Positions 15,251-59,320 of a stretch of 64,000 bases of DNA are shown one piece after another; the first letter of the stretch is position 1, and each line of letters opens with the position of its first letter. Both the position numbers and the translations under genes were made by a program. The notes below the pieces were generated by a model, which was not told the origin of the DNA, ran no database searches, and saw only the letters and a list, made by a program, of their open reading frames with translations. This stretch comes from Minisyncoccota bacterium (GTDB lineage Bacteria > Patescibacteriota > Minisyncoccia > Phycocordibacterales > Phycocordibacteraceae): positions 33,470 to 97,469 of the forward strand of contig JBAYLD010000004.1 in the NCBI GenBank assembly GCA_041664265.1. The letters are read 5' to 3'.

Positions 15251-16228
15251 ATGCGCAAGCCGATCCTGCATCATCTCCACGACTACTTCTTCCCGCATCC
15301 GCGCAACAATCACTGTCCGCATCTCTTCAGTACCGCATCCCTCGCGGTGCTCGCGATCGCGATTGTCATCTTTGAAGCAGGGTATCTGGTGCAGACAAAG
15401 ATCGTCTTCTTAAGGACCGACTTCCTCGCGTCAGTCTTGCCGGGGGCGCTCGTCGCGCTTACCAACCAAGATCGCGCGACGCTCGGCGTGGCGGGCGTTG
15501 CCGAGGATCCGCTCTTGAATAAGGCGGCCGCGGCGGCCGCGGCCGACATGGCGGCCAATGGATACTTCGCGCATGTCTCGCCTGGGGGTAAGGAGCCATG
15601 GTACTGGCTCGACTCCGTGGGCTATCGGTATTCCTATGCGGGGCAGAATCTCGCCGTGAACTTCACCGACTCTGAGAATGTCGAGACGGCGTGGATGGCG
15701 TCGCCGACGCATCGCGCGAACATCGAGAAGCCGCAGTATACGCGGGTTGGTATCGGCACGGCACATGGCGTGTACGAGGGGAGAGAGACGACTTTTGTCG
15801 TCGCCTTTTTCGCGACTCCCGCGTCAGCAGAGGCACACGTTGCCTCTGTGGAGGTTAAACCTCCACAAAATATCTCCACGAACGTGAGGGACGTTAGTCG
15901 TCCCTTAGCGACTACGTCCGTCCAGGTGCTCGGTACTGAGATCGTAGATACTGACGCAGGAAGTGCGGCAGTAGATGCTGACTCGGTGCCGCCAAAGGCG
16001 CCGCCGAGCCGGCTCGCTCGTATGCTCGCGTCGCCCTCTACAATGCTTCAGGTGATACTCACCGCCCTTTTTGCTCTCGTTGCGGTTTCGTTTATCGTCG
16101 TTATGTTTGTGCGGGGGAAGGATCACCACCCGCGCGTGGCTCTCGGCGCGGCGCTCCTCTGTCTGCTCATCTCTGGCGCGCTTATCGTGAGCGCCTTGGC
16201 CGCCGGACCCGTGTTACTCCTCGTTTAA
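15251..16228 (+). CDS. CAP/SCP/PR1-like (YkwD-type) domain protein with N- and C-terminal TM segments
   Basis: YAGQNLA..W..SPTHRANI...YTRVGIG signature of CAP domains. Confidence 0.65.
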   Translation: MRKPILHHLHDYFFPHPRNNHCPHLFSTASLAVLAIAIVIFEAGYLVQTKIVFLRTDFLASVLPGALVALTNQDRATLGVAGVAEDPLLNKAAAAAAADMAANGYFAHVSPGGKEPWYWLDSVGYRYSYAGQNLAVNFTDSENVETAWMASPTHRANIEKPQYTRVGIGTAHGVYEGRETTFVVAFFATPASAEAHVASVEVKPPQNISTNVRDVSRPLATTSVQVLGTEIVDTDAGSAAVDADSVPPKAPPSRLARMLASPSTMLQVILTALFALVAVSFIVVMFVRGKDHHPRVALGAALLCLLISGALIVSALAAGPVLLLV

Positions 16229-16238
16229 AACGCCCATG

Positions 16239-16294
16239 TTAGGACATCCGATGTCCTAAATTCAAAATGCATGTTGGGACATCGGATGTCCGAA
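16239..16294. repeat. Tandem direct repeat made of two hairpins: ttaggacat-ccg-atgtcctaa and ttgggacat-cgg-atgtccgaa. The same element recurs at 46916..46960.
   Basis: Each unit is CATGTTRGGACATCSGATGTCC. The second hairpin is close to the reverse complement of the first. Confidence 0.8.
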
Positions 16295-16297
16295 ATG

Positions 16298-16390
16298 CTA
16301 GAACCCGCCGGTAACGAGGCCAGGCAAGAGCGTCCCGATTAGGGCGAGGGCGAGCAGCACGACGACGATGATGGCAAATGCGCGTTTCAT
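16298..16390 (-). CDS. Possible 30-aa hydrophobic micro-protein MKRAFAIIVVVLLALALIGTLLPGLVTGGF
   Basis: ATG at 16390 to TAG at 16298. It forms a single TM helix. It is below the ORF-track size cut-off and is flanked by hairpins. Confidence 0.25.
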   Translation of the reverse strand: MKRAFAIIVVVLLALALIGTLLPGLVTGGF

Positions 16391-16433
16391 CGCCCGATCA
16401 TACCAAATCATTTTTGCTCCCACAATGCGTTTC

Positions 16434-16458
16434 TTGATGGACACTCCGTGTCCATCAA
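16434..16458. repeat. Hairpin ttgatggacac-tcc-gtgtccatcaa (11-bp stem) upstream of the lipase-like gene. It has the same GGACA..TGTCC core as the 16239 element.
   Basis: Perfect inverted repeat read directly from the sequence. Confidence 0.6.
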
Positions 16459-16515
16459 ATTAATGAAGTGTTCATAAAGCATTTGTTGCGCTTGCAGGGG
16501 CGGTATAGTGGAGCC

Positions 16516-19311
16516 ATGCGCGCTCAAAACGCCGCGTTATTTTTTATCATCATCGCGCTCACGGTGAGCGCGCCGCTCGGCGCGTTCGCTACTCCATCGA
16601 TCATCTCTCAATATTCAGGCGTAACCCAGCCATATCTGGAGCGGATGAATATACATGTTGGAGTTGCTGATCATCGCTACTTCGTGGCGACGGGGACGGT
16701 ATCCAGCATCGCACTGACGCTGGCAACTTACAAAACCACGTTCACCGGCACAGAGACATTCCAACTTCGGCTCTATAATCAGTATTATAGCCAATGGATT
16801 GATTGCGAAACGCCCGTTAAGACCATCGACGAGTGGGGAATGACGCACCTGCCGAGAGATCCGTATGCTCCCCTGGTAATGTTTGGCCCTTTTACCGGCA
16901 CACAGTGCGATGTTACCGGCACCTTTACTCCTGGGGGTGGTCCGAATTCAGGAGTCGTCTGGCCGATTCTCGACGGTAAAACCAACTACACTGATTTTCC
17001 CGGGCGCATGGGTAATAATCTCCGTTCGAATTTTACCGTGTACGGAGCTGATATCCCTGAACCCGACCCTTGTGCGACGCCGGGCGTCTGCGCTTCAAAC
17101 GTGTTGTTCTTGCCCGGCATACAGGGCAGCCGGCTGTATGAAGGGACCGGGTGCGGGAAGAGCGCCGAAGAGAAATTGTGGGAGCCGCTTGGGGATTCGC
17201 TCTTGAGCATCTTGCGCGGGGCGGGGGACGCGAAGATGCGCGGATTATTTCTGGATGATGCGGGAGAGAGCGTGTGCAGCGATGTATACACAAAAGAAGG
17301 TGATGTGATCGGCTCGGTGCGCGGTGACCCTATCTACCAATCATTTATTGACGCGATGGACGAGCTCGCCGCCGGCGGCGATATCACCGACTGGGAGCCG
17401 GTCGCCTATGACTGGCGGCTTTCGCTCGATGCCTTGTTAGACAAAGGCGCAGCGCGGGAAGGGAACCTCTATTATGCGGGGGGAGACACCGGCGCGACGA
17501 GCACGCCCTATATCGAGCAGACTCTCCGCGCGCTTGCCGCGAGCTCCAAGACGGGGAAGGTGACCATCGTGGCGCACTCTAACGGCGGCCTCGTCGCCAA
17601 GGCTCTGCTGAAGAGGCTCGGCGATGGCACAGCCTCACTGCTGGTGGACAAGGTGATCATGGTGGGCGCGCCGCAGAGCGGCGCGCCCGAGGCGTTTGGC
17701 GCGGCTCTTGTCGGGCACAACGCGGGCATTTATAAGTTCGGCTTCCCGATCGTCTCCAACGCCGTAGCGCAGGAGTTCGCCAAGAATGCGCCGATGACGT
17801 ACCACCTGCTCCCGTCAGATAGGTATCTGGCGAGCGTCGCGAGCGATGCAGATCACCCCGTCGCCCGCTTTAGGGGCGACGCCTACGCCGGAGAGATCGC
17901 GGCATACGGCGCCACCATAGGCGACACCACCGAGCTTGGCGACTTCATGCGCGCGTCCTCGCTCAACGCGTCGCTCATCGATTATGCCAACACGGCGCAC
18001 GCCGCGCTCGACGCTTGGGCGGCACCCGAGGGTATCGAGGTGAGCCAGATAGCGGGGTGGGGAGCCGACACGATCGCGGGGATAGACTTCTATACGCCGC
18101 CGCCCGTGAACGCGCTCACCGCTCTCGAGCCGATGCGCCGATATCGGCCGATCTTCACCGAGGACGGTGACGGCACGGTCCCTGTCCCGAGTGCGCTCAT
18201 GATGTCGGAGGGCGAAAATGTGAAGAGGTATTGGGTGGATCTTCATGCTTACAATCTCGAAACGAACTCTGGTCGAGAGCACAAAGATTTATTCGAAATC
18301 CCTTCATTGCAAGATTTTATTAAAAACATCATCACCAACAGCACCAGCACACTCCCGGCTTATGTCTCTACCAACCAGCCATCGTCAACAACCGAAGATA
18401 AGAAGCTCACCTTCTTCCTCCATTCGCCGCTCACGCTCCAGCTCACCGATGCATCGGGTAGGGTGACCGGCCTCGCCGAGGATGGCTCGATGACCCAAGA
18501 TATCCCCGATTCGACCTATGGCGAGTTTGGCGAGGTGAAGTATGTCACCGTCCCTCAGGGCAGCGACTACGAGCTCATCCTCCATGGCCAAGCGAGCGGC
18601 ACCTTCGCGCTTGAGATGCAGGAGAGCTCGGGCAGCGTCGTCACCGCCTCGAGCGCCATCGAGAACGTCCCGACGACCGCGAGCACGCTCGCCTCGCTCA
18701 CCATCTCGGGCGGGCTCGACACAGTCTCACCACTTACGGTTGATGCAGACGGCGATGGTGCGAGCGTCATCACTCTCACGCCGAGAGTGGGCGAGACGAT
18801 AATCTATGCTCCACTCGAAGATCCCGAGCCTGTCGAAGAGTCGGTGTCAGAATCCGAGCCAGAATTGCCACCTACGCCAGAGCCAGAACCCGCTCCTTCG
18901 ATAGATCCAGAACCTGTGGCTGCGCCCGTCGAGCCAAGGAGTTCGTCAGGGGGCGGGGGAGGCGGGAGGAGGAGGGTCTCGATCCCCGATGTTGTTGCGG
19001 CACCGGTGGTGGTCACTGAAGAAGCAGTCGCGACGACCACCACACAATCAGCCGCTATCGCTACCAGCACCCCCGAGATTGCAGCCGCTCCGCGCGTCGC
19101 CCAAAGAAGAGAGAAGTCGCCAAGGCCTGTCGCGATAAACACGCAGAAGTCGAGGGAGGAGGAGCCTGCAGTACAAAAAGCGGATACAGATATCCCACAG
19201 ACCGCGGCGGCATATGATGCCGCTTCTCAACAACCGATGGTTAAGAGGTGGGGCGCGGCAGTTTATAATGGTTTCTACGGATTCTGGGTCGCGCTCAAAA
19301 AATTCTTTTAA
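16516..19311 (+). CDS. Secreted alpha/beta-hydrolase of the LCAT/PGAP1-like lipase family, with a Pro-rich linker and a C-terminal GGGGGGRRR module
   Basis: Signal peptide MRAQNAALFFIIIALTVSAPLGAFA. Nucleophile elbow VAHSNGG (GxSxG). The tail reads PEPEPAPS...SSSGGGGGGRRR. Confidence 0.6.
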   Translation: MRAQNAALFFIIIALTVSAPLGAFATPSIISQYSGVTQPYLERMNIHVGVADHRYFVATGTVSSIALTLATYKTTFTGTETFQLRLYNQYYSQWIDCETPVKTIDEWGMTHLPRDPYAPLVMFGPFTGTQCDVTGTFTPGGGPNSGVVWPILDGKTNYTDFPGRMGNNLRSNFTVYGADIPEPDPCATPGVCASNVLFLPGIQGSRLYEGTGCGKSAEEKLWEPLGDSLLSILRGAGDAKMRGLFLDDAGESVCSDVYTKEGDVIGSVRGDPIYQSFIDAMDELAAGGDITDWEPVAYDWRLSLDALLDKGAAREGNLYYAGGDTGATSTPYIEQTLRALAASSKTGKVTIVAHSNGGLVAKALLKRLGDGTASLLVDKVIMVGAPQSGAPEAFGAALVGHNAGIYKFGFPIVSNAVAQEFAKNAPMTYHLLPSDRYLASVASDADHPVARFRGDAYAGEIAAYGATIGDTTELGDFMRASSLNASLIDYANTAHAALDAWAAPEGIEVSQIAGWGADTIAGIDFYTPPPVNALTALEPMRRYRPIFTEDGDGTVPVPSALMMSEGENVKRYWVDLHAYNLETNSGREHKDLFEIPSLQDFIKNIITNSTSTLPAYVSTNQPSSTTEDKKLTFFLHSPLTLQLTDASGRVTGLAEDGSMTQDIPDSTYGEFGEVKYVTVPQGSDYELILHGQASGTFALEMQESSGSVVTASSAIENVPTTASTLASLTISGGLDTVSPLTVDADGDGASVITLTPRVGETIIYAPLEDPEPVEESVSESEPELPPTPEPEPAPSIDPEPVAAPVEPRSSSGGGGGGRRRVSIPDVVAAPVVVTEEAVATTTTQSAAIATSTPEIAAAPRVAQRREKSPRPVAINTQKSREEEPAVQKADTDIPQTAAAYDAASQQPMVKRWGAAVYNGFYGFWVALKKFF

Positions 19312-30660: not shown

Positions 30661-30680
30661 TTAAGGTGTCACCTTACGGG
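30661..30680. repeat. PAL-A copy: taaggtgtcaccttacgg
   Basis: GGTGTCACC core with CCTTACGG arms. Confidence 0.75.
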
Positions 30681-32428: not shown

Positions 32429-32474
32429 TTACATAGGGCTGCCCTATGTAAGCCCGTAAGGTGTCACCTTACGG
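32429..32474. repeat. PAL-B (ttacatagggctgccctatgtaa) followed by PAL-A (ccgtaaggtgtcaccttacgg)
   Basis: Both are perfect palindromes. The downstream aagtgataagat box precedes the next ATG. Confidence 0.85.
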
Positions 32475-32739: not shown

Positions 32740-32838
32740 TACATAGGGCTGCCCTATGTAGGCAAGTTGTTTAGTGAGCACGGGTAGTAAATCCGTAAGG
32801 TGTCACCTTACGCAGAGCCGTAAGGAAACACCTTACGG
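32740..32838. repeat. PAL-B (tacatagggctgccctatgta) + PAL-A (ccgtaaggtgtcaccttacg) + variant PAL-A (ccgtaaggaaacaccttacgg)
   Basis: Three palindromes lie in about 100 bp. The aagtgataaaat box precedes the next ATG. Confidence 0.85.
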
Positions 32839-32858
32839 AAGTGATAAAATAGAGCGAT

Positions 32859-33098: not shown

Positions 33099-33103
33099 TA
33101 AAT

Positions 33104-33142
33104 CCGCAAGGTGACACCTCGCGGCGAGGTGTCACCTTGCGG
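33104..33142. repeat. PAL-A2: a 39-bp perfect palindrome ccgcaaggtgacacctcgc-g-gcgaggtgtcaccttgcgg
   Basis: The reverse complement of the left 19 nt equals the right 19 nt exactly. Confidence 0.9.
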
Positions 33143-33196
33143 ACACAGACACAGAGCCATGGGTTCAAATGTTTTTTGTTTCATACCTTGAAATAG

Positions 33197-34129: not shown

Positions 34130-34150
34130 CCGTAAGGTGACACCTTACGG
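34130..34150. repeat. PAL-A perfect copy: ccgtaaggtgacaccttacgg
   Basis: Identical to the copy inside prmC. Confidence 0.85.
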
Positions 34151-36229: not shown

Positions 36230-36240
36230 ATCCATAAACG

Positions 36241-36298
36241 CCGTAAGGTGACACCTCGCAGCGAGGAGTCACCTTACGGCGAAGGAGTCACCTTACGG
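36241..36298. repeat. PAL-A2 variant (ccgtaaggtgacacctcgc-a-gcgaggagtcaccttacgg) plus an extra partial arm (cgaaggagtcaccttacgg)
   Basis: One mismatch relative to a perfect 39-bp palindrome. Confidence 0.8.
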
Positions 36299-39036: not shown

Positions 39037-40806
39037 GTGTGGATGACACAAGGCGAGGCGCTCACCATATTGAAGACGGGTGCGAACGTATTCCTCACCG
39101 GCGAGCCCGGAAGCGGCAAGACGCACACGATAAATGAGTTTGTTGCGTGGTTGCGATCATCAGGCATCGAGCCTTCGGTGACCGCAGCGACGGGGATCGC
39201 GGCGACGCACGTGAGCGGCATGACGCTCCACTCTTGGAGCGGCATCGGCATCAGCGAGTCGCTCTCGCGGGCTGATGTAGATCGCATCGCGAGCAGGGAG
39301 CATATCGCGAAGCGCTTAACGAAAGCCAAAGTGTTGATTATCGAGGAGATCTCCATGCTGTCGGCGGCGACGTTTGAGATGGCAGACAAGGTGTGCCGCG
39401 AAGTGCGACGCAGCGACCAGCCCTTTGGTGGGCTGACGGTGATTCTCGTAGGGGACTTCTTCCAGCTCCCGCCCGTGTCGCGTCGAGGCGATGTTGAATT
39501 CGCCTATGCGTCAAAACTTTGGCGCGAATTGAATCCGATCACCTGTTACCTCACCGAACAATATCGGCAGGATGATGCGGCGTTTCTCGATGTGCTCTCG
39601 GCGATACGGTCGGGCACGGTTGAAGAGTTGCACTATGAGCATCTCACTTCGCGACAGGTCGCCAAGGATCCGTTAACAGCCGAATGCCAAGGTCGGACCT
39701 TGGAGAACTCAATACCCAAACTGTTTTCGCACAATGCGGATGTCGATCGCATCAATGCCGCTGAGCTCGCCAAGCTCCCGGGTAAAGCGAGAAGCTTCTC
39801 TATGAGCTCGAAGGGTAAGGACTCGATGGTTGAAGGCCTGAAGCGCGGCTGCCTCTCGCCAGAAATCTTGGAGTTGAAGGAGGGCGCGGCGGTCATGTTC
39901 ACCAAGAATTCGCCGCAGGGGAAGTTTGTGAATGGCACGCTTGGCGTTGTCATCGATTGGAGCTTCGATGGTGCGCCGGTTATCGAAATTCGCAGCCCTT
40001 CGACTGGTTCGACAAGCTCACCGCAAGCAAGCTCAGGGCATCGTCTCCGCGTAACCGCAGAGACTATGGAGTGGCAGCTCGAAGAACAGGGCAAGGTGAA
40101 GGCGAGCATCACACAATATCCGCTCCGGCTCGCCTATGCGATGACGGTGCACAAGAGCCAGGGCATGAGCATGGACGCGGCGATTATGGATCTCTCAAAG
40201 GCGTTTGAATATGGACAAGGATATGTCGCGCTCTCGCGCGTGCGGCGGCTCTCGGGCGTGTATCTCACCGGTCTCAACGCGCGTGCGCTTGAGGTGCATC
40301 CGGAGATCCTGAAAAAAGATAAGGACTTCCGCGCCGCCTCAGAGGCGGCGCGCGATGCATTCGCCGAAATGCCTGAAGCAGAAGTAGAAGGGATGCAGAA
40401 GAAGTTTGTGAAGGCGATGGGCGGAGCATTTATGGACCCACGCACGAAACACGAGGGGATTAAGGGACTTCGTAAGTCCCTATCTGATAGGGACTTACGA
40501 AGTCCAAACATTCCGGGAAGATTAGCCGAGACGCTCCAAGCCGCGCGAGACGCGAAGAGTTTGAAACAGGTAGCAAAAGAGCGCGGACTCACCGCGAGCA
40601 CTATCGTGAAGCATCTGGAAGAGTTGGCGGAGATGGGGAAGCTCGCCCGAGCCGACTTCGCACACCTCGTGCCGATGGATATCATCGGCGAGATCCACGA
40701 GGCGCTCGCAGAGAACAAAGACGGCCGCCTCTCGCCAATCTTCCACGCTCTCAAAGGCCGTCACTCGTTTGAAACCATCCGCCTCGTCCGCCTCATGCGC
40801 GATTAG
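39037..40806 (+). CDS. PIF1/RecD-like SF1B DNA helicase with a C-terminal HTH-like domain
   Basis: Walker A GEPGSGKT, and the linker-tail context. The helicase body is followed by a helix-rich tail. Confidence 0.8.
   Translation: MWMTQGEALTILKTGANVFLTGEPGSGKTHTINEFVAWLRSSGIEPSVTAATGIAATHVSGMTLHSWSGIGISESLSRADVDRIASREHIAKRLTKAKVLIIEEISMLSAATFEMADKVCREVRRSDQPFGGLTVILVGDFFQLPPVSRRGDVEFAYASKLWRELNPITCYLTEQYRQDDAAFLDVLSAIRSGTVEELHYEHLTSRQVAKDPLTAECQGRTLENSIPKLFSHNADVDRINAAELAKLPGKARSFSMSSKGKDSMVEGLKRGCLSPEILELKEGAAVMFTKNSPQGKFVNGTLGVVIDWSFDGAPVIEIRSPSTGSTSSPQASSGHRLRVTAETMEWQLEEQGKVKASITQYPLRLAYAMTVHKSQGMSMDAAIMDLSKAFEYGQGYVALSRVRRLSGVYLTGLNARALEVHPEILKKDKDFRAASEAARDAFAEMPEAEVEGMQKKFVKAMGGAFMDPRTKHEGIKGLRKSLSDRDLRSPNIPGRLAETLQAARDAKSLKQVAKERGLTASTIVKHLEELAEMGKLARADFAHLVPMDIIGEIHEALAENKDGRLSPIFHALKGRHSFETIRLVRLMRD
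40465..40505. repeat. 41-bp perfect palindrome ggacttcgtaagtccctatc-t-gatagggacttacgaagtcc, in-frame inside the helicase coding sequence
   Basis: Encodes KGLRKSLSDRDLRS between the helicase core and the C-terminal domain. Confidence 0.85.
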
Positions 40807-40815
40807 CAGTCACGT

Positions 40816-41582
40816 GGGGTTTCCGAAATCCTTCAATTCTTCATGAAGAATTATTCAAGATCAATCTTTTCTGGGTTATCGAGTTCTGAATCTTTAAGGA
40901 AGTCAATAAGTTCCTTGCCATAATTGCCGAAGACCTCGCTGAAGAAAGACTTTGTGAGTATGGAAGGAAAGTTTCTTCGGCCGGTATAATCGAGCAGGCT
41001 ACTCCAGCGGTATGTAGAAAGATGTTCCAAAGCTTTATTCATGTCCGCAATGCCACCTTTGTTACGGATGCGCCAGTCCTGGGCACCCTCAAGATAATCA
41101 AGCGGGTTTAGATGCAAATAGTGGAGGATATATAGAAAGTGCGGTTCATGTTCAATCAATATCCTTTTCGTGTGCCCTTGGAATAGAGTCCCTTTTCGCT
41201 CGTAGCGTTCGTTAAAGTAATTCGCATAACCGACATTAATTTTTCTGAGGAACAAACTGACACCACCCTCGACGCGCTCAGAGAGCAGGAGATGGTAATG
41301 ATTTTTCATCAGAGTCCATCCGTGAATGTCCACCAATAGCTCGCGCTCTTTTCTAAATGAAGGGTTTCCGAAACCCTTCATTCCCGATGGGTCAAAGAGG
41401 CGAGACATGTTCTCGGCAGGGGCGGTGTCATTGAATTCGTAGAGATTGTGCACAAAGCGCGCATAATCTTGAGAATCAAGAAATAATTTTCTCCCGTCGA
41501 CGCCCTTATTTAATACATGCCACAGCTCCACCCCCTCATGATACATGAAGGGTTTACGAAACCCTTCAATTCCTCATGAAGG
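40816..41582 (-). mobile_element. REPIN-like unit: a RAYT gene flanked by direct copies of a roughly 30-bp element carrying the PAL-C hairpin GAAGGGTTTCSKAAACCCTTC. A third copy sits inside the coding sequence.
   Basis: Copies at 40816..40850 (degenerate), 41356..41382 (perfect 12-bp stem with a ccg loop) and 41547..41582. Confidence 0.6.
40851..41546 (-). CDS. REP-associated tyrosine transposase (RAYT; IS200/IS605 TnpA-like Y1 HUH transposase)
   Basis: HUH motif HYHLLL, LFQGHTKRILIEHE and HYLHLNPL match the RayT and IS200 TnpA layout. The gene is flanked by palindromes. Confidence 0.7.
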   Translation of the reverse strand: MYHEGVELWHVLNKGVDGRKLFLDSQDYARFVHNLYEFNDTAPAENMSRLFDPSGMKGFGNPSFRKERELLVDIHGWTLMKNHYHLLLSERVEGGVSLFLRKINVGYANYFNERYERKGTLFQGHTKRILIEHEPHFLYILHYLHLNPLDYLEGAQDWRIRNKGGIADMNKALEHLSTYRWSSLLDYTGRRNFPSILTKSFFSEVFGNYGKELIDFLKDSELDNPEKIDLE

Positions 41583-45337: not shown

Positions 45338-46489
45338 TTAGGTTGTTTGTGCCGGTATGGTCACCAGAGAAGTTTGGCTCCCCTCAATCAAGGCATCGAG
45401 GAAGGCGTCCAAGGGCGCGGTCGCGACGCAGACGACCTTGTCGGCGCCGCCGTAGTAGATGAAAAGGGTGCCGTTTTGTACCGTCGCGCCGCAAGCGTAG
45501 ACAACGCCCGGTTTGCCCTCATTCTCGTAACGTTCGTCCGGGGAGATGATGGGAGCAGCAGAACGGTGAAGTACGTGTGTCGGATCGTTGAGATCGAGCA
45601 GCATCGCGCCGAGCTTGTAGCGATTTGGTTCGCAGCTATCAACCGCGTGATAGAAGAGGAGCCAGCCGTGTGGAGTCTTGATGGGTGGCGGTCCCGCACC
45701 GCGAACAAACGTGTCCCAACAATGTTCTCTTACCGGGAGACTGCCACGCGCGCCGACCCAACTGTCGATCAGAGGTTCTTCAGTGCCGATGTCTTCAATT
45801 GAGTCGCGATAGGCAATGTCTATTTTCGGCGTGATGCTGTGCAGGATAGCGAATCTCCCGTTTATTTTTTCTGGGAACAGGACCCAATTTTTGTGTACCT
45901 GCTTCGGCTGGGAGAGGAGATAGGGCCCGTCCCACTTCTCAAACCGGTGCGCGACCAAATCGTCCTCCGCAATTGAGATAGCGGCGACGCGTATGAAGTC
46001 CCATCCGTCAAATATATTGAACGTGATATAGACTCGTCCGTCGAGAAGCACCATGCGCGGATCCTCGCATCCGCCCCAACTGCCGCCCGAGGGATATAAG
46101 ACGGGAGAATAGCGGCGGATGCCGTTTGAAGAGGCACGCGGATTTTGCGCAACGAAGGCGGGATAGGGCCAGAGCGTATCAAAGACGATGCCGTCGGCGC
46201 TGCTCGCATAGCCAAGCCGCGAGATGCCGTCAGTGCCGATGGCGCGATAGATGAGGTGCGTGCGGCCATTGATAATCGCAGCCGCCGGATTCAAGACCGC
46301 CTCGGCAGTCCACGGGTGTTTGCCCGGTTTTAGGATCGGGTTACCGAGGTGTTTGTCGAGTACGAGGTGTCGTAGGAGCGTCGCGACTTTTTCACGCAGC
46401 GGCCGAGAGAATGCAATGCCGAGAATCGCTCCGACGACAAAGAGAGAAAAGAGCAGTGCGACGATATTCACAAAAAATAAGAAGCTCAT
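45338..46489 (-). CDS. GH130 (DUF377) family protein, membrane-anchored
   Basis: N-terminal TM helix, then GCEDPRMV, LLFYHAV and YYGGADKV. Confidence 0.75.
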   Translation of the reverse strand: MSFLFFVNIVALLFSLFVVGAILGIAFSRPLREKVATLLRHLVLDKHLGNPILKPGKHPWTAEAVLNPAAAIINGRTHLIYRAIGTDGISRLGYASSADGIVFDTLWPYPAFVAQNPRASSNGIRRYSPVLYPSGGSWGGCEDPRMVLLDGRVYITFNIFDGWDFIRVAAISIAEDDLVAHRFEKWDGPYLLSQPKQVHKNWVLFPEKINGRFAILHSITPKIDIAYRDSIEDIGTEEPLIDSWVGARGSLPVREHCWDTFVRGAGPPPIKTPHGWLLFYHAVDSCEPNRYKLGAMLLDLNDPTHVLHRSAAPIISPDERYENEGKPGVVYACGATVQNGTLFIYYGGADKVVCVATAPLDAFLDALIEGSQTSLVTIPAQTT

Positions 46490-46544
46490 AGCTTTAATAA
46501 CAATAGCATTCGCATGGCGGTTTGAAGCGTGGTATATTCAGCAC

Positions 46545-46919
46545 ATGTTGGTAAATGTCTGTATCGCGAAGCTGCACCGCGCGACGGTGACCGACGCCGA
46601 TCTCAATTATGTCGGCTCGATCACGATCGACGAAACGCTCCTCGAAGCGGCAGGGCTCGTGCCCGGGCAGATGGTGCAGATTACAAATGTGAGTAACGCC
46701 GTCCTCTGGCGCACCTATATCGTGAAGGGCGACAAGGGGAAGGGCGAGATCGTCTTAAACGGCCCGCCGGCGCGCCTCTTCCAAAAGGGCGACAAGGTCA
46801 TCATCCTCGGCGAGGGTTGGGTCGAGGCGGCGGAGGCTGCGAAGATGAGCCCCACGGTCGTCTTCATGGATGACCAGAATCAGATTACTGAGGTAAAAAA
46901 AGGCTGGCGCCCAAGTTAG
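46545..46919 (+). CDS. panD: Aspartate 1-decarboxylase
   Basis: MLVNVCIAKLHRATVTDADLNYVGSITIDE is strongly PanD-like (pyruvoyl Gly-Ser site). Confidence 0.8.
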   Translation: MLVNVCIAKLHRATVTDADLNYVGSITIDETLLEAAGLVPGQMVQITNVSNAVLWRTYIVKGDKGKGEIVLNGPPARLFQKGDKVIILGEGWVEAAEAAKMSPTVVFMDDQNQITEVKKGWRPS

Positions 46920-46960
46920 GACATCCGATGTCCTAATTGCACGTGGACATCGGATGTCCA
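46916..46960. repeat. Second locus of the tandem-hairpin element: ttaggacat-ccg-atgtcctaa followed by tggacat-cgg-atgtcca. The first hairpin overlaps the panD stop.
   Basis: The first hairpin is identical to the copy at 16239..16259. Confidence 0.8.
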
Positions 46961-47069
46961 AATGCAGGTTGCAAAAGTAGGATTAGAGCGTACGCTTCTC
47001 TCCGGAAGCCCTTCTTAGGTGTAAGGGCGATTTTGATTTTTAACTCACTAAAAGAAGGAGGAAGAGAGA

Positions 47070-50784: not shown

Positions 50785-51189
50785 ATGGCTAAAAAAAAGA
50801 AACCGGCGTATCCGGAGGGTGTCGTAGTAAAAAAATCGAGCGCGGGTCTCGGGCTCTTCGCCACGCGCCCGTATAAGAAGGGCGAACGCATCATCGAATA
50901 TTTTGGCCGCATCATCGCGCCCGAAGAGGAGTACACGAGCCGGAGCAAGTATCTCTTTGAGGTGAATAGCAAGAAGACGATCGATGGCACGACACGCGAA
51001 AATATCGCGCGCTATATCAACCACTCCTGTCGTCCCAACTGCGAACCGAATATCATAAAAGGGCGCGTCTTCATCGACACGATGAAAAATATCAAAGCAG
51101 GAGAAGAGTTTACGTATGATTATGGCAAGGAATATTTTGACGAGCACATCAAGCCCTTCGGTTGCCGTTGCAGCAAATGCAATAAATAA
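50785..51189 (+). CDS. SET-domain protein, putative protein lysine methyltransferase
   Basis: NHSCRPNC, the EEFTYDYG (ELTYDY-like) motif and a post-SET CRCSKC. Confidence 0.75.
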   Translation: MAKKKKPAYPEGVVVKKSSAGLGLFATRPYKKGERIIEYFGRIIAPEEEYTSRSKYLFEVNSKKTIDGTTRENIARYINHSCRPNCEPNIIKGRVFIDTMKNIKAGEEFTYDYGKEYFDEHIKPFGCRCSKCNK

Positions 51190-51190
51190 C

Positions 51191-51225
51191 AAAACGCCCC
51201 GCTTTTAGCGGGGCGTTTTGTCTGA
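51191..51225. terminator. Bidirectional Rho-independent terminator aaaacgccccgc-tttta-gcggggcgtttt
   Basis: A perfect 12-bp stem with A/T tracts on both sides, between convergent genes. Confidence 0.8.
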
Positions 51226-54195: not shown

Positions 54196-56883
54196 ATGCC
54201 TCCCTTTAACAATTTCACCACCAAAGCAAAAGAAGCCGTACGCCGAGCGCACGAGCTCGCGATCGAACGCGGCCAGAACCACGTCTCACCACTCCATTTG
54301 CTCGCCGCGCTTGTGCTCCAAGAGGAGTCCCTCGTCTTCTCGATGCTTGATCGGATGGAAGTCGATACCGTCATGCTCGCGGATGCCGTGCTTGAGCATC
54401 TTGAGGCGCCCGAGAGCGCATCGGTGCTCTCGCCCTCGTACCAGATTTATCTCACGCCCGATCTCGCTCAAGCGCTTGAAGCATCGGGGAAGATTGCGGC
54501 GCGCATGAATGATGCATTTGTAGGCACCGAACATCTCTTCCTCTCGGTTATCGAACATCCGGGCGGAGCCGCAGACATACTCGCGCGCTTCTCGATAAGC
54601 CAGCAGGCGGCGCTCGCTGTCCTCAAAGAATTGAAGAATTCGAAGGAGGGTCAGATTGCAGAACCGAAGCAGTTCCGCGCGCTCTCCAAATATGCGCGCA
54701 ACCTCACCAAGCTCGCCGCCGAGAACAAGCTTGATCCGGTCATTGGACGCGACAGCGAGATCAACCGCGTCATCCAGATCCTCGCGCGCCGTACCAAGAA
54801 TAACCCGGTGCTTATCGGCGAAGCGGGCGTCGGGAAGACGGCCATCGCTGAAGGGCTCGCGGCGCGTATGGCGACCAACGATGTCCCCGAATCGCTTCGC
54901 GGCAAAGAGCTCCTCTCGCTCGATCTCGGGCTCATGATCGCCGGCACCAAATATCGCGGCGAGTTCGAAGAGCGTATGAAAAATGTTATGAAGGAGGTCG
55001 AACGTGCAGAAGGGAAGGTGATCCTCTTCGTCGACGAGCTCCACACGCTCGTAGGCGCCGGCGGCGCCGAGGGCTCGCTTGACGCATCGAACATGTTGAA
55101 GCCCGCCCTCTCGCGCGGCGAGATCCGTGTCATCGGCGCGACGACACTGAAGGAGTATCAGAAGTATATCGAGAAAGATGCCGCGCTCACGCGCCGCTTC
55201 CAATCGGTTTTTGTGCAAGAACCATCCGTCGAAGACGGCATCGCGATCTTGCGCGGGCTGCGCGATAAATATGAGCTCTTCCACGGGGTGCGCATCACCG
55301 ACGGCGCTATCGTCGCCGCGGTCGAGCTCTCCTCGCGCTACATCTCTGATCGCTTCTTGCCGGACAAGGCGATCGATCTTATCGACGAAGCGGCATCAGG
55401 TCTGCGTATCGCGCTTGAGAACAAGCCGCCCTTGCTGGAGGAGACCGACCGCAAGATCCGCCGCCTCGAGATCGAGCGCCAAGCGCTCCAAAAAGACTTA
55501 GAGGGAGAACACAGCAAAGAGATCAAGGAGCGCATCAAGGATATCGATGCCGAGGTTGCCGATTTGAAGGAGAAGACAAGCGAGCTCGAGCTCAAGTGGA
55601 AGAACGAGAAGGATATATTGACCGGCATCCGCGCCCACAAGACCGAGCTCGAGGCGCTCAAGATCCAGGCGGACAATGCCGAAGCCGCCGCTGATCTCGG
55701 CACCGTCGCCGAGATCCGGTATGGCAAGATCCCGCATATCCAAAAAGATCTAGAAGCGAAGCTGAAGCGCCTGAAGATGCTCCAGAAGTCGCGCCGCGTT
55801 TTGAATGAAGAAGTAACCGAGCAGGATATCGCCGCGGTCGTCAGCCGCTGGACGGGCATCCCAGTGGTGCGCATGCTCGAAGAAGAAGCCACGAAGCTCT
55901 CGCGCATGGAGGAGTCGCTGAAGAGTAGTATTATCGGTCAGGATACTGCGGTCAAGAAGGTGACGGACGCGGTCAAGCGCTCGCGCGTGGGCATCAGCGA
56001 CCCGAATCGCCCGATCGGCTCATTCCTCTTCTTGGGGCCCACCGGCGTGGGCAAGACCGAGCTCTCGAAGAAGCTCGCGGAGTTTATGTTCAACGACACC
56101 GATGCCTTGGTGCGCATCGACATGAGCGAGTTCATGGAGAAGCACTCGGTCGCGAAGCTTATCGGCGCGCCGCCGGGCTATGTCGGCTATGAGGAATCGG
56201 GCACCCTGACTGAGCGCATCCGGCATCGCCCCTATGCGGTGGTGCTCTTCGACGAAATCGAGAAGGCGCATCCCGAGGTGTTTAATATCTTGCTTCAAGT
56301 GCTCGATTCGGGCCATCTTACTGACGGCAAGGGGCGCAAGGTTAATTTCAAGAACACCATCATCGTGCTCACCAGCAACATCGGTGGAGAGTTCATCGAC
56401 CGTCTCGCGCACATCGGCTTCGGCACCGCGGGCGCGACCGAGGCGTCGCAGTATGAAGAGACGAAAGTGCGCGTGATGGATGCGCTCAAAGAGCACTTCC
56501 GTCCGGAGTTCTTAAATCGTCTCGACGATATCATCATCTTCGACGTGCTCGCGAAGGAGGCGCTCGCGAAGATCGTCGATACGCAAGTCGAGGAGGTGAC
56601 GAAGCGCTTGGCTCAGAAGCGCATCGCGCTCGCGTTCGCTCCCGAGGTGCGCTCGTGGCTGGCCGAGAAGGGCTACAATCCACAATATGGCGCGCGCCCC
56701 TTGCGCCGCACGATCCAGGACAAGATCCTCACGCCGCTCGCTTCGCTCATGGTTGACCAGGGGGTGACAGAGGGCGGAACAGTGACGGTCTCGATCAGGT
56801 CTGCCGAGCCGCATTTTGAGGTGAAGAAGAAGCAGGTGCGTGTCCGTCGAAGTCAGACATCGACAGCTGCTGTGGATGTCTGA
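54196..56883 (+). CDS. clpB: AAA+ chaperone ClpB
   Basis: Clp_N domain, two Walker A boxes (GEAGVGKT and GPTGVGKT) and a long coiled-coil M-domain. Confidence 0.9.
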
Positions 56884-56931
56884 CTTCCACGAGTCGTTGC
56901 TTAAATCGGGTGTTTCTGCTAAATTAGCGTT

Positions 56932-57087: not shown

Positions 57088-57133
57088 CCCGCCAAAAACA
57101 AAACCGCCTTCGGGCGGTTTTGTTTTTGGCGGG
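57088..57133. terminator. Long perfect hairpin cccgccaaaaacaaaaccgcc-ttcg-ggcggttttgtttttggcggg
   Basis: A 21-bp stem between rpmG and the convergent tRNA. Confidence 0.7.
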
Positions 57134-58341: not shown

Positions 58342-59184
58342 TTATTCTTGGTCGAGGACTTTAAGTTTGCGCAGCCACGCCTTTTGGCGGCGGGCATACT
58401 GCCAGAGCTTAGCGGAGAGGATAGGGAGAAGAGCTTCTTCAATTTGGCCAACACCTGGTGTTGGCCATTTTTGCAAATATTCGCCGATGATGCGATATTC
58501 GAGCCCGAGCTCGTTCAGGCGCGCGTCGCCTACTTGATTGCGCACTCGACGCACTTCGTCAACCAATCCCCGCCCTAATGCTTGCTTTAGGCGGGCATCG
58601 ATTCTTGTGCGCAATTCTTCTTTTGGCGGGTCAATCACAATCCATTGCACAATATAGGGACTTACGATGTCCCTAGATGGGACAGAGCCAAGGGAGGAGA
58701 TGATCTCGAGCGCGCGGATGAGGCGGCGGCGGTTCTTGGGGTCGAGCTCGACGGCACGACGGGGGTCCGCGGAGCGGACGCGCACATGAAGCTCTTCATT
58801 TGAGAGCCCTTCAATTTCGGCTCGGAATGTTTGATTCGCGGCAATTTCGGGAACGGGACGGAGCAACGCGTCAAAATAGAAGTGCGTGCCGCCCACAAGG
58901 ATCGGCAACTTCCCTCGAGCAGAAATATCTTTGATCAATCGTGTTGCATCAGCGACAAAGTCGCCAGCAGAATATGTTTCGTGCGGGTCACGAATATCGA
59001 TAAGGTGATGCAGCACGCCGCGCATCTCTTCTTTCGTGATCTTTTCTGTGCCGATATCTAGGCCGCGATACACCTGCCGCGAATCAACCGAGATCACTTC
59101 ACCGTTTCGCGCAAGCGCTTCTTCAACCGCTCGCGCAGACTTGCCCGAGGCAGTCGGCCCCGCGATGCATAAAATTTTAGTCAT
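58342..59184 (-). CDS. miaA: tRNA dimethylallyltransferase
   Basis: GPTASGKS P-loop and DSRQVYRGLDIGT. Confidence 0.85.
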   Translation of the reverse strand: MTKILCIAGPTASGKSARAVEEALARNGEVISVDSRQVYRGLDIGTEKITKEEMRGVLHHLIDIRDPHETYSAGDFVADATRLIKDISARGKLPILVGGTHFYFDALLRPVPEIAANQTFRAEIEGLSNEELHVRVRSADPRRAVELDPKNRRRLIRALEIISSLGSVPSRDIVSPYIVQWIVIDPPKEELRTRIDARLKQALGRGLVDEVRRVRNQVGDARLNELGLEYRIIGEYLQKWPTPGVGQIEEALLPILSAKLWQYARRQKAWLRKLKVLDQE

Positions 59185-59235
59185 CAAGGGCGATGGTAGC
59201 ATTTTTGAATCCATCGTGCCCCAGCACGAAAACGC

Positions 59236-59320
59236 TGGTGCTGGAGGTGGGAATCGAACCCACAACCCTTGCGGGACACGATTTTGAGTCGTGCGCGTAT
59301 ACCAGTTCCGCCACTCCAGC
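59236..59320 (-). tRNA. tRNA-Leu (anticodon CAA), type II
   Basis: 85 nt. Acceptor GCTGGAG/CTCCAGC, anticodon stem CACGA/TCGTG, loop CUCAAAA, a long variable arm and an encoded CCA. Confidence 0.75.

Follow-up and report, generated by a model that had tools for sequence, protein, structure and literature searches.

Paired palindromic repeats in a Patescibacteria genome are probably REP/REPIN-like doublets of a RAYT-type system

The closest described relatives of the repeat reported here are the REP/BIME/REPIN elements of E. coli and Pseudomonas with their RAYT enzymes (TnpA-REP; PDB 4ER8; PMC3116915, PMC2817692). These are short palindromic units, found mostly as inverted pairs with a short spacer, in many copies per genome and preferentially at gene 3' ends. 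A single Y1/HUH gene is bracketed by the same repeat, which is known as the REPtron architecture, and folding of the doublet into a single long hairpin is possible. Di Nocera et al. 2013 (PMC3733652) described intragenic REPs, many of which lie in genes for replication and repair (uvrA and polA among them), and treated two families of Rickettsia palindromic elements (RPEs) as equivalent to CGTC-type REPs. We found no report of a REP/RAYT system in Patescibacteria in the literature searched, and a text search of the literature matched no paper to the 13-mer core of the repeat or to its encoded peptides.

All of the REP/BIME/REPIN features named above recur in the repeat family studied here. The differences are that its units, which have a three-base loop, are shorter palindromes, near-perfect and odd-centred, that they carry no conserved GTAG tag, that half of the copies among the listed pairs are intragenic, and that the same 13-nt core recurs across phyla beside enzymes that are only ~25% identical. 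The transposases, at ~205–235 aa, also score far below the RAYT equivalog cut-off. With the intragenic REPs and RPEs (PMC3733652), the family shares in-frame palindromic insertion, copies overlapping gene ends, and UvrA and PolA as targets (here UvrA, PolA, RecG, and DnaE), although the intragenic fraction of ~50% of listed pairs is much higher. Unlike the present family, RPEs are 100–150 bp long and occur in Rickettsia only, and CGTC-type REPs are not linked to transposase genes (PMC3733652). A likeness to the TIRYT/TIRtron, compared by description, lies in a Y1 transposase longer than a classical RAYT and in flanking repeats that are self-complementary and occur in dimers (PMC3733652). IS200/IS605 elements and their miniature derivatives (PATEs) have in common with it a Y1/HUH enzyme and the recognition of single-stranded hairpins, which is inferred here. 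The ends of IS200/IS605 are two different subterminal hairpins on one strand of an element carrying its own gene, whereas the present repeats are dispersed without a gene and paired in inverted orientation.

The window, the whole 64,000-nt stretch that was analysed from contig JBAYLD010000004.1 of a Minisyncoccota bacterium, contains two doublets and a single variant hairpin, none of which is assigned to a strand:

16239..16259, no strand: element 1, unit 1, TTAGGACATCCGATGTCCTAA; a perfect 10+1+10 palindrome with a C centre.
16274..16294, no strand: element 1, unit 2, TTGGGACATCGGATGTCCGAA, with a G centre; its core is the exact reverse complement of the unit 1 core.
46916..46936, no strand: element 2, unit 1, TTAGGACATCCGATGTCCTAA; the TAG stop of panD lies inside it (46917-46919).
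46943..46962, no strand: element 2, unit 2, GTGGACATCGGATGTCCAAA, with a G centre.
16434..16458, no strand: single variant hairpin TTGATGGACACTCCGTGTCCATCAA, GGACAC-TCC-GTGTCC; a REP-like singlet between a small ORF and an LCAT-like gene.

The initial annotation had described an identical first hairpin at both loci, a second hairpin approximating its reverse complement, and a third with a GGACA...TGTCC stem, and all three descriptions were borne out. The same 21-mer opens both elements and includes the 15-mer GGACATCCGATGTCC (16242-16256 and 46919-46933), its G-centred complement GGACATCGGATGTCC follows at 16277-16291 and 46945-46959, and the third hairpin is the singlet listed above. The unit sequence of this GGACATC family is GGACATCSGATGTCC. 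Four exact core units are present in the window, and six core matches were found at up to two mismatches against 0.19 expected by chance, a number reached in 0 of 100 shuffles. The element 1 region was base-for-base identical in an independent assembly from another sample, and it is therefore not an assembly artefact. At the gathering threshold, Rfam 15 matched two tRNAs in the window and neither element; at E ≤ 1, it gave no match in 16150-16520.

Both elements had been said to overlap stop codons, which is true of panD only. The panD ORF (46251..46919; Pfam Asp_decarbox) ends with its TAG inside unit 1 of element 2, and the next gene begins 111 nt downstream of that element. The CAP-domain gene (15251..16228) stops at 16226-16228, and element 1 begins 10 nt further downstream. 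A small minus-strand ORF does abut element 1, with its stop 3 nt from the element end; it has 48 aa from a GTG (16298..16444) or 37 aa as called in the source record (16298..16411). The predicted 37-aa product is hydrophobic (MIWYDRAMKRAFAIIVVVLLALALIGTLLPGLVTGGF) and without a Pfam match. The two-hairpin structure that had been proposed is one of two possible folds, but the RNA reaches its minimum energy as a single long hairpin formed by pairing between units 1 and 2 (−33 and −36.6 kcal/mol; z = −5.5 and −5.2). Flank complementarity extended equally within and between units, by 1.6 pairs each, compared to 0.53 in the shuffled control, and so favoured neither the two small hairpins nor the single long one.

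When one genome per species was scanned for pairs of 13-nt cores lying 7–37 nt apart, at least 114 doublet loci were identified, and several genomes had many copies. The prospect that only two copies exist, as parts of a segmental duplication, is thereby removed, and the family is multi-copy. Among the matches listed, nearly all carriers were Patescibacteria of many classes, including Saccharibacteria, Moran-, Kaiser-, Jorgensen-, Portnoy-, Falkow-, and Adlerbacteria, and Paceibacterota. The remaining listed carriers were Lewinella/Neolewinella, cultured strains included, and a few Actinomycetota, Bdellovibrionales, and Gammaproteobacteria MAGs, the taxon labels being those of the deposited MAGs. 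One Falkowbacteria MAG (L005) and one Raymondbacteria MAG (L090) had identical sequence around the doublet and a RAYT-like gene. This is probably binning overlap, so the non-CPR labels of some matches call for caution.

Each unit is a hairpin with a 6–10 bp stem and the core GGACAT-CSG-ATGTCC, and the two units are inverted. Among the 121 pairs listed, the centres were C...G in 81, G...C in 33, and C...C or G...G in 7, and the spacers measured 7–36 nt, with clusters at 12–13, 21, and 26 nt. The cores were exact reverse complements in 114 of these pairs (94%), and solo units were rare (8 of 249 units within the retrieved loci), in a set for which retrieval with the exact pair pattern inflates apparent conservation and pairing. 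Flanks and spacers were lineage-specific and common to the copies of one genome, the pattern expected of copy-and-paste spread; Moranbacteria, for example, had a 21-nt spacer tcgcgaccataacagccgaaa with outer repeats taggacttacgcgtttgc, and Lewinella copies had TGACA...TGTCA flanks. The flank consensus over 248 units was TTNG-core-CNAA (T-T-N-G / C-N-A-A). No conserved GTAG or CGTC tetranucleotide was present at the hairpin foot over these units, GTAG occurring in a subset only. Read directly, the core sequence is free of stop codons in all six frames.

The repeat also flanks transposase genes. In a Lewinella locus (L085), a 180-aa ORF bracketed on both sides by GACATC doublets matched Pfam Y1_Tnp, and its sole NCBIfam match was the REP-associated tyrosine transposase (NF047646). 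Loci L005, L081, and L111 contain homologues, and so does the window (40851-41546, minus strand). The GGACATC core was present on both flanks of the RAYT-like genes of L122, L126, and L085 and on one flank in L081 and L005, with the L122 flanks reading AAAGCTAGGACATCCGATGTCCTAGCTTT ... AAAGCTAGGACATCGGATGTCCTAGCTTT. At L122, the RAYT-like gene and its doublet are apparently in tandem (1740-2718), as a second copy of the doublet, promoter region, and gene start stands at the contig end with one mismatch.

Invariant in the alignment of the RAYT-like proteins were the HUH motif NH(Y/F)HLL and the tyrosine motif Y(I/L/V)-x-x-N, also written Y-x-x-x-N(P), which was kept in all five proteins. A profile of these five had a single match in the PDB, E. 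coli TnpA-REP (4ER8; E = 3.8e-6), and a metagenome scan with it recovered more than 493 relatives. The same 13-nt odd-centred palindrome stood both upstream and downstream in 23 of the 61 RAYT-like loci with enough flank, and the commonest centre of these flanking palindromes was TCCGA/TCGGA. Although NF047646 was the sole NCBIfam match, scores of 27–48 bits did not reach its equivalog cut-off of 80 bits; Pfam Y1_Tnp scores ranged from 22.2 to 39.3 bits against a cut-off of 23, the window protein being just under at 22.2. The Lewinella RAYT with the same core is only ~25% identical to those of CPR, so the identity of the core across phyla is not explained by a close common enzyme. Sister families show compensatory stem changes (GGACAT/ATGTCC, GGACTT/AAGTCC, and GGGTTT/AAACCC), which point to a folded single strand and not to duplex reading.

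The window holds a RAYT-like gene of its own, together with further units of the GGACATC family and of sister families:

40851..41546, minus strand: RAYT-like Y1/HUH gene, 231 aa, with motifs HYHLLL (HUH) and YLHLNP (Tyr).
41547..41567, no strand: 5' flank hairpin of the RAYT-like gene, GAAGGGTTTACGAAACCCTTC; with CAATTCCTCATGAAG, it repeats the 3' flank.
40816..40852, no strand: 3' flank of the RAYT-like gene, with the palindrome AATTCTTCATGAAGAATT preceded by an imperfect GGGGTTTCCGAAATCC hairpin.
41359..41379, no strand: in-frame unit GAAGGGTTTCCGAAACCCTTC inside the RAYT-like gene; peptide MKGFGNPSF.
40465..40505, no strand: sister-family doublet GGACTTCGTAAGTCC-ctatctgatag-GGACTTACGAAGTCC, in frame in a PIF1-like helicase ORF (39037..40806); peptide KGLRKSLSDRDLRSP.
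6480..6500, no strand: degenerate single unit GTGGGACTTCCGATGTCCCAC with one core mismatch; it reads in frame (VGHRKSH) within a methyltransferase-like ORF on the minus strand.
58655..58675, no strand: TAGGGACTTACGATGTCCCTA, a degenerate single unit read in frame within miaA (58342..59265, minus strand).

Judged from its sequence, the window gene is a candidate for the mobilising enzyme class, and its own flanks belong to a sister hairpin family and not to GGACATC: it is bracketed by GGGTTTMCGAAAYCC hairpins followed by CAATTCYTCATGAAG. A second Y1_Tnp gene (203 aa; L199 7186-7797) lies on the same contig, ~1.5–2.1 kb upstream of the window start, and is flanked by three TGTGGAAGTCGGACTTCCACA hairpins; in the metagenome loci L123 and L131, too, RAYT-like genes have the TGTGGAAGTCGGACTTCCACA core on their flanks. 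In the ~94 kb of the source genome examined, neither RAYT-like gene had GGACATC flanks, and GGGTTTMCGAAACCC and GGAAGTCGGACTTCC were present instead. Beyond the window, the contig contains three more GGACATC units in frame, a single unit in dnaX (VGHPMSH) and a pair in dus (GHRMSSFEIGHPMS).

Odd-centred palindromes were abundant in the window overall, 31 against ~4 expected, a set that includes the helicase doublet, the two degenerate single units, and a separate abundant family, CCGTAAGGTGWCACCTTACGG. The window holds more of a second palindrome family, CCGTAAGGTG(A/T)CACCTTACGG, than of the GGACATC family; it consists of singles and inverted doublets, mostly just 3' of genes, and none was found in 194 loci from other genomes. 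Its sites are:

3395-3435, 6115-6137, 30662-30676, 32454-32474, 32792-32839, 33103-33143, 34130-34150, and 36239-36298: units of the CCGTAAGGTG family.

The odd-centred palindrome (T)TACATAGGGCTGCCCTATGTA(A) occurs at 32429-32451 and 32740-32760, ~300 nt apart, each copy adjoining a CCGTAAGGTG-family unit. A near-perfect 47-nt palindrome, CGTCGAAGTCAGACATCGACAGC-T-GCTGTGGATGTCTGACTTCCACG (56845-56891), overlaps the clpB stop (ORF 54196..56883).

The surroundings of the listed pairs were examined with simple gene calls that follow a crude longest-ORF rule. By this rule, 61 of the 121 pairs are intragenic, and for 43 of these the ORF is 300 aa or longer. Among the 60 outside ORFs, 28 overlap a stop or sit within 30 nt after one, and pairs between divergent genes are as numerous as those between convergent genes (nine each). 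In-frame host genes encode RecG, DnaE, UvrA (at two different sites), PolA, LeuRS, ValRS, GluRS, GatB, and TsaD, and the insert peptides are RTSDV, GHPMS/GHRMS, and DIGCP/DIRCP. The opposite strand at L031 1128-1190 and L004 1577-1657 encodes a near-identical peptide (SRHRMSGNSPTSDVG; DIGCPTSDVGHPMS), a tblastn reverse-strand self-match that arises because the insert is palindromic. The doublet-bearing DnaE of L004 (862-3726) also holds a large insert that looks like an intein from its sequence and ends in ...VHNSHAASY.

Filled and empty sites could be compared at several loci. The UvrA of L100 is 18 aa longer than that of L019 by a clean extra segment, and the DnaE of L004 likewise carries additional sequence compared with that of L048. 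In L034, which is syntenic with the window and ~74% identical to it, a doublet lies between two convergent genes where the window is empty (~60400); at this level of identity, the alignment resolved neither a target-site duplication nor an exact boundary. In L110, MiaA takes both its last residues, LGHPMS, and its stop codon from the doublet, as panD takes its stop from element 2, and at this miaA end the window and L110 are too diverged for a clean empty-site comparison. The TsaD loop between PGGP and PRPM was followed through 120 orthologues (P0001-P0120) fetched regardless of the motif. The loop was found short, with intact copies, or with decayed copies, some of them half-deleted GGACATC inserts, and some orthologues had doublets belonging to different hairpin families, GFVNPS...GFTKP (GGGTTTCGTAAACCC...GGGTTTACGAAACCC) for example. 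On these sequences, the loop is a repeated insertion hot spot, and its short forms (…RELGSPTSKF…) look like remnants. Conservation of the core in place at TsaD was considered and rejected, as the unbiased orthologues show all stages of decay.

The location of both window copies at gene 3' ends, the 28 listed extragenic pairs at or just after stops, and the very stable RNA fold (z about −5) would suit a reading in which the doublets serve first of all to mark transcript ends, as bidirectional terminators or as stabilising 3' hairpins kept by selection. REPs in E. coli do stabilise upstream mRNA. We nevertheless regard this reading as unlikely. Neither stem is followed by a T-run (the tails are gaaatgct and aaatgcag), and a terminator scan called neither element, although ordinary bidirectional terminators with A-tract, stem, and T-tract occur elsewhere in the window (6681-6712, 51189-51221, and 57088-57133). 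Half of the family is intragenic, much of it in long ORFs, convergent intergenic regions are not favoured over divergent ones, and a terminator role leaves the flanking of transposase genes unexplained. Bidirectional termination, one of the functions put forward in the initial annotation, was therefore set aside as the primary nature of the element.

Two further readings had been put forward, a binding-site pair and a MITE. An operator pair for a dimeric DNA-binding regulator would account for units that are near-perfect 15–21 bp palindromes and come in pairs, and element 2 does sit 111 nt upstream of the next gene. We consider it highly improbable, however, given that unit spacing varies from 7 to 36 nt and that copies occupy many unrelated positions inside coding sequence, in frame in unrelated essential genes, as well as 3' ends; in addition, sister families show compensatory stem changes and the motif decays freely at the TsaD site. 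A classical MITE, understood as a deletion derivative of a DDE-type IS with terminal inverted repeats and target-site duplications, would likewise be short, non-autonomous, an inverted repeat over its whole length, multi-copy, and polymorphic for presence and absence. Yet no DDE transposase gene was seen beside any copy among the neighbours met in the course of the other comparisons, the genes that the repeat does flank are Y1/HUH, both arms form hairpins of their own in the manner of REPs, a target-site duplication was not visible in the filled/empty alignment of ~74% identical genomes, and a scan of 2.9 million viral contigs gave 0 matches. A classical MITE is thus very unlikely; what survives of that proposal is a non-autonomous mobile element, and the DDE-type origin finds no support in any neighbouring gene.

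Other candidates were discarded. A CsrA-type GGA hairpin site was considered for ACAUCGGAUGU, which resembles the CsrA SELEX ligand, but one of the two units lacks GGA in its loop, and a spread through coding sequence is out of keeping with such a site. DNA uptake sequences were considered because the pairs are inverted, stand at gene ends, and favour repair genes, and were rejected on density, which is far too low at 2 pairs per 64 kb. The flanks do not fit the RYYYAAC/GTTRRRY of an integron attC site, and the null result in viral contigs speaks against a phage-borne element.

The remaining suggestion of the initial annotation, another REP class, agrees with the multiple copies, the inverted dimers, the filled and empty sites, and the RAYT-like genes flanked by the same doublet. 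The window elements are probably REP/REPIN-like doublets: two inverted REP-like units in REPIN/BIME geometry, non-autonomous and, as we infer, copied by a RAYT of the Y1/HUH type. Their transposition is deduced from the architecture and the presence/absence polymorphism. By analogy with the biochemistry of E. coli TnpA-REP and IS200/IS605, the units would fold on single-stranded DNA, and the RAYT would recognise the hairpin, for which the T-CSG-A centre is the part common to the sister families. The enzyme would then cut beside the hairpin and reinsert the doublet elsewhere. Since the core is without a stop in all six frames, insertions would be tolerated in protein surface loops, where they are read as GHPMS, RTSDV, or DIGCP. 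They would be tolerated as well at the 3' ends of genes, with the TTAG/CTAA flanks able to provide a stop, as in panD. The two window copies most likely represent passive insertion at the ends of genes. Their RNA would, according to the predicted folds, adopt a very stable 3' hairpin, which may have a secondary effect on mRNA decay or translation termination.

REP/REPIN-like doublets of a RAYT-type system are a kind of element already known, and they are new to this lineage. Earlier work had described both REPs lying inside repair genes and the REPtron architecture (PMC3733652), and no new category is opened. For annotation, the finding accounts for odd palindromes and for the peptide insertions GHPMS, RTSDV, and DIGCP in essential genes and at gene ends of CPR/Patescibacteria, and it ties them to a specific enzyme family. 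We tentatively raise a broader view, which we hold to be possible but rather doubtful, in which the doublet is part of a Patescibacteria-wide REPIN-like system with a divergent RAYT-like clade, routine in-frame coding insertion (about half of the copies), and different repeat families that enter the same loops on the surface of essential proteins (TsaD, RecG, and LeuRS) time and again. If true, such a system would be a major source of protein insertions in reduced genomes, and the same core beside ~25%-identical Bacteroidota enzymes would mean either inter-phylum repeat transfer or strong enzyme-imposed convergence on T-CSG-A hairpins. The cultured Neolewinella strains that carry the same core offer a tractable organism for studying mobilisation and RNA-level effects. 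The repeat is a short, selfish palindromic repeat found in many ultra-small CPR bacteria, and REP/RAYT-type systems thrive in gene-dense genomes of ~1 Mb, where they are pushed into coding sequence.
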